A stretch of DNA of 64,000 nt from Escherichia phage 121/2022-2B. Every line of letters starts with the position of its first letter. Positions within the stretch are counted from its first letter, which is position 1. The stretch lies in sequence record OR958571.1, one strand, 5' to 3'. The notes beneath the pieces were generated by a model. The model was not told the DNA's origin. It was given only the letters and a program-made list of their open reading frames with translations, and did no database searches. Positions 11,508-13,261 of the stretch are shown one piece after another. Made by a program: the position numbers and the translations under genes.

Positions 11508-12523
11508 TGTGTTGCCTCTACATATAACTGATTTGCATATTGAATAAGTGCTTCGCGATCAGAATCAGTGATGTCTGGAATTGCATTAATGTATTCTTCC
11601 ATCAATGTCTGAAGAGATTGAACTTCAACTTCTTCACTATCATCTGACTCGACAGAGTTATCAATCTTTGACACAACTCGTAATGAATGCACAACTTTTT
11701 CTAATTCAGATTCGAACTTCGTTAGATTTTTGTCTACTTCAGTTACTATAACACGTACTGATAGATTTGTAAAATCTTTATAGTCAATTTTTCCTTTAAA
11801 TGGATAATGAATTCTACGATGCCAGGTAGTATTGTTTGGAATAAATTCCATTCGTTCTGTTTCTGTATCAAACATCCAGAACCCACGAGGGTCATTCTCG
11901 TCACCTGCAGTTAGTGTCCATGGTGTCCCAATATATCTGACATTAGCAGCCTCAGAGATAGTATGGAAGTGACCAGACCACACTTCTTTATAAGTCTTAA
12001 GGAAATCAGGTTCAAGACCATGAGATTTCATTCCTTTATAAAAATAAAATCCGTTCAGTTCCCAGTGACCAACACAAAAAGAAGCAGATGAAGTTTTGAT
12101 GTGCTCAAGAATTTCACCAGTATTTTCTTCACACATCCAAGGAATTAAATCAATTAAACATCCGTCAAAATCTACCGTAGTAGGCTTATCATATACTTTA
12201 ACATTGGGATATTTAGCCAAAAGCTCAGTAGAGGCATTTGGATGCATTACATTTTTGTAGTGGAGATCGTGATTTCCTACAATAGTATGTAATGTGATTC
12301 CAGCATCATCAAGCATTTGAACTATTTCACGAGCGAACTCCATAGTTTTATGTGTGATTGCTTTTCGCACATCAAAAATATCACCATATTGAATCCATAT
12401 AGTAATTCCATTTTTCTTAGAATATTCTATCGCTTGCTTAATTCCATCAATTTGAATACCGCGAATCCACTCATCATCAGCTTTAACGCCTAAATGCCAA
12501 TCACCCAAGTTTAGTATTTTCAT
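11504..12523 (-). CDS. 47: recombination endonuclease subunit (Mre11/SbcD-like phosphoesterase)
   Basis: ORF track 339 aa; calcineurin-like motifs GDWH, GDIFD, GNHD. Confidence 0.9.
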   Translation of the reverse strand: MKILNLGDWHLGVKADDEWIRGIQIDGIKQAIEYSKKNGITIWIQYGDIFDVRKAITHKTMEFAREIVQMLDDAGITLHTIVGNHDLHYKNVMHPNASTELLAKYPNVKVYDKPTTVDFDGCLIDLIPWMCEENTGEILEHIKTSSASFCVGHWELNGFYFYKGMKSHGLEPDFLKTYKEVWSGHFHTISEAANVRYIGTPWTLTAGDENDPRGFWMFDTETERMEFIPNNTTWHRRIHYPFKGKIDYKDFTNLSVRVIVTEVDKNLTKFESELEKVVHSLRVVSKIDNSVESDDSEEVEVQSLQTLMEEYINAIPDITDSDREALIQYANQLYVEATQ

Positions 12524-13124
12524 GGTGTCTTTTCCATCCTAATTTAGCTGCTTTTGAAACTAGTTCTTTAATTTTTCCTTTTGTCCATTCAGGACCAGGA
12601 GGTTCATGACATAACATTTGCTTAACTCCGTTATTATACCATTTTTTACCTTTATTATGTGATGAAGCTTTAAATTTATTTGACCTTCCTTTTACATAAC
12701 CTTCTGGAATATAAGGCAAAAAGGCAGATTTTCCTGTTAATGGATCATGTGAATGTATATTTCCTTTACAATTATGAGAACCATATAATGGATGATTTTG
12801 TCCTTTATTATCTCTTCCAAATGAACCTTTTGGAGCAGCATATGACATATTAAAGAATAATGGATTTTTAACTGCATCATGCAATCGTTGATAATATAAC
12901 TCGCATTTAATAGCTTCTTCACGCGTATCAAATTCAGCTAAAATGCATGAATCAAATAAGTGAGGATTATCTGAAAGCTCTTTATTATAAATTTTCTTAT
13001 ACTTTTTAGATAAAACTGAACCATGATATCCAGCTAAATGCCTATCTAAAGACGTAGATCCAATATAAAAAGGAGGAAGTTTATCTCCACTATATATTGT
13101 TAAATAAGTTATATATTTTTTCAT
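12501..13124 (-). CDS. GIY-YIG homing-endonuclease-like protein (Seg/I-TevI family)
   Basis: ORF track 207 aa; N-terminal KYITYLTIYSGDKLPPFYIGST (GIY...YIG), downstream Arg and Glu, and a KGKKWYNNG DNA-binding-type motif. Confidence 0.6.
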   Translation of the reverse strand: MKKYITYLTIYSGDKLPPFYIGSTSLDRHLAGYHGSVLSKKYKKIYNKELSDNPHLFDSCILAEFDTREEAIKCELYYQRLHDAVKNPLFFNMSYAAPKGSFGRDNKGQNHPLYGSHNCKGNIHSHDPLTGKSAFLPYIPEGYVKGRSNKFKASSHNKGKKWYNNGVKQMLCHEPPGPEWTKGKIKELVSKAAKLGWKRHHENTKLG

Positions 13125-13261
13125 ATATCAAGAACCGTCATTGAAATGCAAAATAAAATTATTGAAATAAATCCATCTGGAGTGCTAAAGAACCCAATCC
13201 AACATGCTCTAGTGAATAGATAAAATGCAAGAAAAAGTATTACATATCCAAGAAATATCAT
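13121..13261 (-). CDS. possible 46-aa hydrophobic peptide overlapping the endonuclease start (ATGA)
   Basis: My own translation MIFLGYVILFLAFYLFTRACWIGFFSTPDGFISIILFCISMTVLDI; too short for the ORF track. Confidence 0.25.
   Translation of the reverse strand: MIFLGYVILFLAFYLFTRACWIGFFSTPDGFISIILFCISMTVLDI

Follow-up and report, generated by a model that had tools for sequence, protein, structure and literature searches.

A question raised by the start of gene 47 in Escherichia phage 121/2022-2B is whether the 207-amino-acid open reading frame (ORF) that lies directly upstream of it is a mobile gene and, if so, of what kind. The DNA considered here, referred to as the window, is a stretch of 64,000 nucleotides (nt) from sequence record OR958571.1. 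A first-pass annotation had described the ORF as a GIY-YIG homing-endonuclease-like gene, free-standing and wedged between conserved genes. The ORF is present as described, its identity is supported by the predicted fold, by homology to the Seg proteins of phage T4 and by conserved residues, and the gene does lie free-standing between genes 47.1 and 47, outside any intron or intein and unevenly spread among relatives. The reading favoured here, with a probability of roughly 0.8, is that it is an active, free-standing Seg-type GIY-YIG homing endonuclease gene (HEG) specialised on the 5' end of gene 47; that it acts as a nuclease, where its target site lies and that it homes are inferred from the comparisons that follow. 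The provisional name 'gene-47 Seg' is proposed for it.

The 47.1/47 junction

Pairwise alignment of the junction with that of T4 revealed a single clean insertion of 601 nt between 47.1 and 47, placed precisely where translation of gene 47 begins. The ATG codons of 47.1 and gene 47 are 738 nt apart in filled genomes and 137 nt apart in empty ones. The insert had previously been placed between 47 and alpha-gt, a position that can now be refined, as the small hydrophobic ORF said to overlap the nuclease start by ATGA is genuine but is gene 47.1 of T4 (identical in amino-acid sequence, with a match to phrog_6693 at 1.5e-31). Since T4 has the identical protein and is without the endonuclease gene, 47.1 is a resident neighbour that does not belong to the mobile element. 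The exact placement of the inserted segment is ambiguous by 7 nt because it is flanked by a direct repeat, ATGAAAA. In T4 the stop codon of 47.1 overlaps the start of gene 47 (ATGA), whereas in the window it overlaps the start of the endonuclease ORF in the same manner and the 3' end of that ORF overlaps gene 47 by 23 nt. The ATGAAAA with which gene 47 originally began, and the ATGA coupling to 47.1, now serve the endonuclease gene, whose 3' end in turn supplies gene 47 with a fresh ATGAAAA start and a different upstream region. Approximately 100 nt of flanking sequence on each side are almost identical to T4, except for four synonymous changes in gene 47.

A promoter of the gene's own was not found in the window, there being no T4 late promoter (TATAAATA) nearby and only chance-level matches to sigma-70-like sequences near the gene, and the endonuclease is therefore presumably expressed on the 47.1-47 transcript. 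In other genera a GC-rich hairpin is followed by a TATAAT-like box 10-25 nt before the ATG of the orthologue, which suggests that those copies have a promoter of their own; the Tequatrovirus copy is coupled to 47.1 instead.

The protein and its relatives

An AlphaFold model built on the family alignment had a mean predicted local distance difference test (pLDDT) score of 84, with values above 90 for nearly all of residues 1-100, and a Foldseek search with the model ranked the catalytic domain of I-TevI at the top with a probability of 0.99-1.0; the modelled fold is clearly that of a GIY-YIG enzyme, an alpha/beta fold in which helices flank a sheet of three strands. Residues 1 to about 105 form the catalytic domain, and residues from about 115 to 207 form a putative DNA-binding region in which two beta-hairpin repeats, ending PEGYVKGR and PEWTKGK, are followed by a C-terminal helix. 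The two motifs quoted in the first-pass annotation were located at residues 9-24 (TIYSGDKLPPFYIGST) and 159-167 (KGKKWYNNG). Conservation was scored on an alignment of 43 family members: the 'GIY' tyrosine Y11 (TIY in this protein) and the YIG motif (Y20-I21-G22) are kept in at least 90% of them, the metal-binding glutamate E75 and the structural asparagine N92 are invariant, and each of these residues lines up with its counterpart in SegA-G and I-TevI. The GIY-YIG reading had been staked beforehand on the retention of the catalytic residues, and it stands. The arginine that had been reported as conserved downstream is probably R28, which sits in a short helix past the YIG strand; this residue is not conserved, other family members having K, N or Q there.

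When the family profile was compared with a set of nine T4 GIY-YIG proteins the best match, over the full length, was SegE (5e-12), followed by SegG (1e-7), SegC (7e-7), SegD (2e-5) and SegB (2e-5), and hhalign gave a probability of 95% for SegG over residues 13-113. A G-Y-x-G-S motif after YIG is common to the endonuclease and the T4 Seg proteins, and the PHROG family phrog_314, labelled 'homing endonuclease', is matched at 5e-18. As judged by sequence, the protein belongs with the T4 Seg proteins inside the GIY-YIG superfamily, and the gene is a previously uncharacterised member of the known Seg family. The Seg proteins cleave DNA site-specifically and are the drivers of 'intronless homing' and of localized marker exclusion (PMC2988022).

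SegE, whose gene lies upstream of uvsW, offers the closest comparison. It shares the catalytic layout (a Tyr-ending hairpin, YIG, G-Y-x-G-S, Glu and Asn) and the C-terminal motif WxNNG...PxGWxKGR, it is of similar size (205 compared with 207 amino acids), and each gene is immediately followed by a conserved gene of recombination or repair. However, the loci differ (uvsW and gene 47 respectively), the loop from the GIY tyrosine to YIG is two residues shorter than in SegE, and the overall similarity is low, a tblastn search with the endonuclease protein having yielded no T4 record at E <= 1e-5. The activity of SegE has been demonstrated experimentally (PMC2988022), whereas the present protein is known from sequence and model. 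It had been proposed that KGKKWYNNG was typical of Seg/I-TevI-like DNA-binding domains; the Seg half of that proposal holds, the stretch matching the C-terminal motif of SegE and SegB, but it does not correspond to the DNA-binding domain of I-TevI.

SegG, encoded between genes 32 and 59, shares the motifs PP(F/Y)YIGS and NP-x-(F/Y)-FN-h-x-(Y/F)A with the endonuclease, but the C-terminal domains differ. According to a title by Liu et al., SegG reportedly cleaves at a site distant from its own gene, unlike the situation here, in which the sole differences linked to carriage lie within 18 nt of the insertion point. SegG is reported to mediate marker exclusion and co-conversion (PMC2993671), which is the behaviour proposed for the endonuclease. 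I-TevI, encoded within the td intron, has the same modular arrangement of catalytic and DNA-binding domains and cuts within approximately 25 base pairs (bp) of its insertion site (PMC2988022), which resembles the near-junction target predicted below. Nevertheless, its catalytic domain gave no significant sequence match to the endonuclease, hhalign of the family profile against I-TevI aligned a weak NUMOD3-like stretch alone (13% probability), and the gene-47 Seg is not intronic and has neither the zinc finger and helix-turn-helix of I-TevI nor its RWKRH (Arg27) segment.

A group of paralogues found in Yersinia phage TG1 and Escherichia phages Bp7 and IME281 has a catalytic domain 45-67% identical to that of the endonuclease. 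In all three cases the gene is directly upstream of gene 39 (topoisomerase II large subunit), rather than gene 47, and overlaps its start, and the C-terminal part carries NUMOD3 repeats in place of the WYNNG-type hairpins. These paralogues, which share the catalytic domain and have another C-terminus at gene 39, are consistent with a target set by the C-terminal module. T4 has a defective HNH gene, mobA, at the equivalent position.

Distribution, linked codons and proposed homing

The gene is held at >=95% nucleotide identity by 68 records of the phage collection (tblastn identity is >=95% in 67), and 452 records, including those of T4, T2, RB14, RB3, RB18, RB51 and wV7, have an uninterrupted T4-type 47.1/47 junction. 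Carriers make up about 13% of Tequatrovirus, or about one in eight close relatives, and 5 of 215 matching records in Mosigvirus, whilst seven junction loci in IMG/VR are all empty and all T4-type. The idea of a mobile element had been set beforehand against the possibility that all relatives would have the gene, with no empty-site variants, and the large excess of empty junctions upholds it. One of the carriers, BASEL phage TadeuszReichstein, has a gene identical to that of the window. Carrier status does not track flank similarity. Diversity within the gene (synonymous divergence, dS, of 0.11-0.15 among Tequatrovirus variants) is not below that of the flanks, and for this reason the gene is not considered a very recent invader.

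The four silent changes affect nt 9, 10, 15 and 18 of gene 47, codons 3-6 reading ATA CTA AAC TTG in the window and ATT TTA AAT TTA in T4. Linkage between the insert and the codons was tested with chimeric 72-nt junction queries, filled-junction matches over >=80% of the query being counted. The window-type codons were found in 68 of 69 filled-junction records, the exception being ERS-1, and the T4-type codons in about 428 empty records. About nine of some 440 empty records have the window-type codons, among them SHFML-26, BCPEco_001, BCPSen_003, PBM-1, Ec_YwIITB1, UGKSEcP1, UGKSEcP2 and EPIMAM01. RB14 is intermediate, being without the HEG yet carrying the carrier base at nt 10. A comparison of five carriers with eight non-carriers over 2400 nt (gene 47 itself, 1020 nt, and the 1380 nt that precede it) revealed 343 polymorphic positions, of which only nt 9, 15 and 18 separated the two groups, nt 10 failing to do so solely through RB14. 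A search for a pattern in gene 47 codons 3-6 that the carriers of every genus would share found none. Apart from the insert, carriage is linked to differences at gene 47 nt 9-18 alone, and on this ground a site of recognition or cleavage that extends across the 47.1/47 junction is predicted. The four changes are candidates for target-site immunity changes or for the end of a donor-derived flank. The nine or so empty alleles with carrier codons could have arisen by a precise deletion between the two 7-nt repeats, or they could be resistant empty sites; each is a stage to be expected in a homing cycle. Selection of the four changes through the overlapping endonuclease frame was considered and is unlikely, because the C-terminal tail encoded there (TKLG, SPHG, SSKR, NS...) is not conserved among orthologues.

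Three records, ERS-1, KNP1 and KNP5, were initially regarded as possible stages of element decay, but all are marked UNVERIFIED and they have been given no weight either way. ERS-1 is filled and has T4-type codons and a broken ORF with several length-neutral (compensating) frameshifts typical of sequencing error, and KNP1 and KNP5 have an apparent 124-nt internal deletion, KNP1 also having a run of N inside the gene; the anomalies of ERS-1 and KNP1 probably reflect sequence quality and not biology.

In each of the eight contexts examined, a full-length orthologue immediately precedes gene 47, those outside Tequatrovirus being 50-76% identical to the window protein. The contexts span at least six genera: Tequatrovirus, Klebsiella phage SmallBear, Serratia phage LC53 (Winklervirus), QL01 (Dhakavirus), AV109 (Mosigvirus), Aeromonas phage L9-6 (Biquartavirus) and two metagenomic contigs. 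In seven of the eight, LC53 being the exception, the ORF either overlaps the start of gene 47 or adjoins it directly, and the gene on the other side varies, so that gene 47 is the constant partner. In AV109 the orthologue has 267 amino acids, with about 60 extra C-terminal residues (locus 2498..3301; gene 47 at 3301..4320), and stands in place of the a-gt.3/a-gt.2 region of RB69. When gene 47 of AV109 was compared with that of RB69 in 100-nt bins there were 28, 35, 44 and 24 differences in the first four bins and no more than 7 per bin later, which amounts to about 33% divergence over the first 400 nt or so and <2% thereafter. This foreign stretch has the appearance of a co-conversion-type tract, and as it lies beside the endonuclease gene the latter evidently arrived laterally with about 400 nt of foreign gene 47.

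The ratio of non-synonymous to synonymous substitution rates (dN/dS), estimated by the Nei-Gojobori method with each sequence compared to the window gene, was 0.05 for both comparisons within the genus (Killian and GEP001) and 0.18-0.26 for orthologues in other genera. The gene is an intact ORF under purifying selection, and it was intact in four of the five filled genomes that were translated, GEP001 (locus 2501..3124) having a GGA to TGA nonsense change at codon 183.

Homing can be envisaged by analogy with T4 SegA-G. A carrier phage and a phage with a T4-type empty junction would infect the same cell, the C-terminal region of the enzyme would bind the empty genome at its 47.1/47 junction or close by, and the GIY-YIG domain would cut both strands. 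Recombination-dependent repair of the double-strand break would then copy the endonuclease gene, together with adjacent markers, from the carrier genome. Carrier genomes would be protected in that the insert splits the site and the four silent changes alter codons 3-6 of gene 47. Comparative support is indirect: for cleavage of the allele without the gene it comes from the silent differences that track carrier status, and for transfer with co-conversion of flanks from the foreign tract in AV109.

The immediate surroundings of the gene are summarised in Table 1. On the minus strand of the window the order is a-gt, a GC-rich hairpin, the 46-amino-acid ORF, the 207-amino-acid ORF and gene 47, the last being identified by matches to Pfam Metallophos and to PHROG 100 (4e-141), in agreement with the T4 annotation. 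T4 carries an HNH homing endonuclease gene, mobB, between a-gt and a-gt.2, where the window has a short spacer only. A phmmer search with window ORFs of >=80 amino acids found no other homologue of the T4 seg and mob genes (mobB, mobC, mobD and mobE among the latter) or of I-TevI, I-TevII and I-TevIII, and this phage segment therefore carries few HEGs. The neighbouring gene 46 junction is also of note in some relatives. T2 has an annotated HEG of 204 amino acids between 46.1 and 46 (T2 locus 3992..4606), and SHFML-26 and BCPEco_001 have one of 284 amino acids at the same place (locus 3992..4846 in each), so that both of these empty-site phages combine carrier-type gene 47 codons with the longer gene. 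In the window nothing lies between 46.1 and 46, which overlap directly at about 11057..11060. The region of genes 46 and 47 seems to be a hotspot for HEGs.

Table 1. Features at and around the 47.1/47 junction (window positions, except in the last row)
Feature	Position	Strand	Remarks
Segment missing from T4, 601 nt	12517..13117	-	12524..13124 equally valid
Left copy of ATGAAAA	13118..13124	-	original start of gene 47, now endonuclease start; ATG overlaps 47.1 TGA (ATGA)
Right copy of ATGAAAA	12517..12523	-	current start of gene 47, within last 23 nt of endonuclease ORF
Endonuclease ORF	12501..13124	-	207 amino acids, ATG start; Seg-like GIY-YIG, free-standing
Four synonymous substitutions	12506..12515	-	gene 47 nt 9, 10, 15, 18 (codons 3-6); from T4 alignment
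Gene 47	11504..12523	-	Mre11/SbcD-like recombination nuclease subunit; downstream neighbour, putative target gene
Gene 47.1	13121..13261	-	46 amino acids, predicted membrane protein; resident upstream neighbour
GC-rich hairpin AAAGGGCTTCGGCCCTTT	13284..13303		after alpha-gt
a-gt	13301..14503	-	Pfam AGT match at 1e-236
a-gt.2-like ORF	14570..14743		57 amino acids; beyond short spacer (14504..14570) next to a-gt
Gene-39 paralogues	1998..2681, 2004..2684, 1998..2675		each in its own extracted record (L027, L028, L029)

Competing explanations and significance

A number of observations weigh against the interpretation of the gene as an active Seg-type HEG. The Pfam GIY-YIG family (PF01541) matches residues 4-84 weakly (E 3e-4) and the score of 21.4 bits narrowly misses the gathering cut-off of 22.6 bits. 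Sequence searches of the PDB, run both with the protein alone and with the 43-sequence family profile, found no GIY-YIG structure, I-TevI included, which is why the link to GIY-YIG enzymes required a comparison of folds, and a search of NCBIfam yielded no match. The family alignment contains no conserved counterpart of Arg27 of I-TevI. The nucleotide-level comparison of junctions rests on eight HEG-less and five HEG-containing genomes, which are mutually related, and the four silent changes could be a mere remnant of the donor flank, an origin that is also compatible with a target at the junction. Such a target would be atypical, as the characterised free-standing endonucleases of T4 usually cut at a distance of hundreds of bp or more from the gene that encodes them (PMC2988022), and would make the enzyme more like I-TevI. 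Finally, literature searches found no paper on this gene. The evidence from the modelled fold outweighs the narrow Pfam miss, and 13 of the 43 family members match PF01541 at E < 0.01. In a local alignment SegA-E of T4 also have no Arg at the position of I-TevI R27, for which reason its absence is tentatively read as a Seg-type trait, and K40 and R68, present in >=90% of members, could substitute for it.

An alternative view is that the gene is an ancestral resident of T4-like phages which has repeatedly been lost by deletion between the ATGAAAA repeats and is not currently mobile. Its presence at the same position in at least six genera, a within-gene diversity that speaks against a very recent invasion and the few empty records with carrier-type codons, as precise deletion would produce, are all in its favour. 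However, the great majority of empty sites differ from carriers at the four silent positions, and T4-type empty sites are therefore not simple deletion derivatives of the present carrier allele. Furthermore, carriers are a small minority in each genus checked, their occurrence does not track flank similarity and the foreign stretch in AV109 indicates lateral arrival, so that the ancestral origin is regarded as unlikely. It is also conceivable that the nuclease has been domesticated and aids the phage through exclusion of competitors, through local amplification or anti-defence, or through regulation of 46/47, and the strong purifying selection, the tight integration of the gene into the 47.1-47 operon and its provision of the gene 47 start region would all be in keeping with such a role. 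SegB of T-even phages is reported to promote the amplification of anti-defence loci (PMC13096335). Nonetheless, the sequence offers nothing that separates domestication from ordinary homing, the sporadic distribution is hard to square with an important host function and one carrier, GEP001, has a premature stop, all of which makes domestication distinctly improbable.

The least credible proposal is that the ORF is an inactive, hitch-hiking pseudo-endonuclease, or else the HNH endonuclease that databases declare it to be. Many RefSeq records (e.g. NC_054916, NC_054919 and NC_054901) name it 'HNH endonuclease', others already call it 'putative homing endonuclease', and both the sub-threshold Pfam score and the missing arginine could be cited in favour of an inactive or differently classified protein. 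Yet a Pfam search at E <= 1 gave no HNH family, the fold is modelled as GIY-YIG, and the label appears to be inherited from the name of PHROG 10820 ('HNH endonuclease'), the best PHROG match at 1e-94. The HNH label is a misnomer with no support in sequence or fold, and the widespread RefSeq annotation is wrong. The number of intact and closely similar copies, the low dN/dS and the conserved catalytic Tyr, Glu and Asn are equally at odds with a dead remnant, which has very little to recommend it.

A more ambitious version of the favoured reading of an active HEG can be put forward tentatively, at something less than even odds. This would see the gene as representing an old and previously unnamed Seg lineage, dedicated to the first codons of gene 47 across the Straboviridae, which cuts its own insertion junction as I-TevI does rather than hundreds of bp away and which provides gene 47 with its translation start.

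The gene leaves the current understanding of homing elements unchanged. Its value lies in the well-sampled natural system that it provides, with hundreds of filled and empty alleles, an insertion point known to the nucleotide, a short predicted target (the 47.1/47 junction and gene 47 codons 3-6) and about nine natural empty alleles whose codons are presumably resistant. HEGs shape the survival of markers in T-even co-infections and mark the boundaries of genetic exchange between phages. It is also worth considering that gp46 and gp47 have been listed as possible exonucleolytic functions in homing, and that the product of the adjoining gene 47 may itself act in the processing of double-strand breaks whilst homing takes place (PMC2988022).

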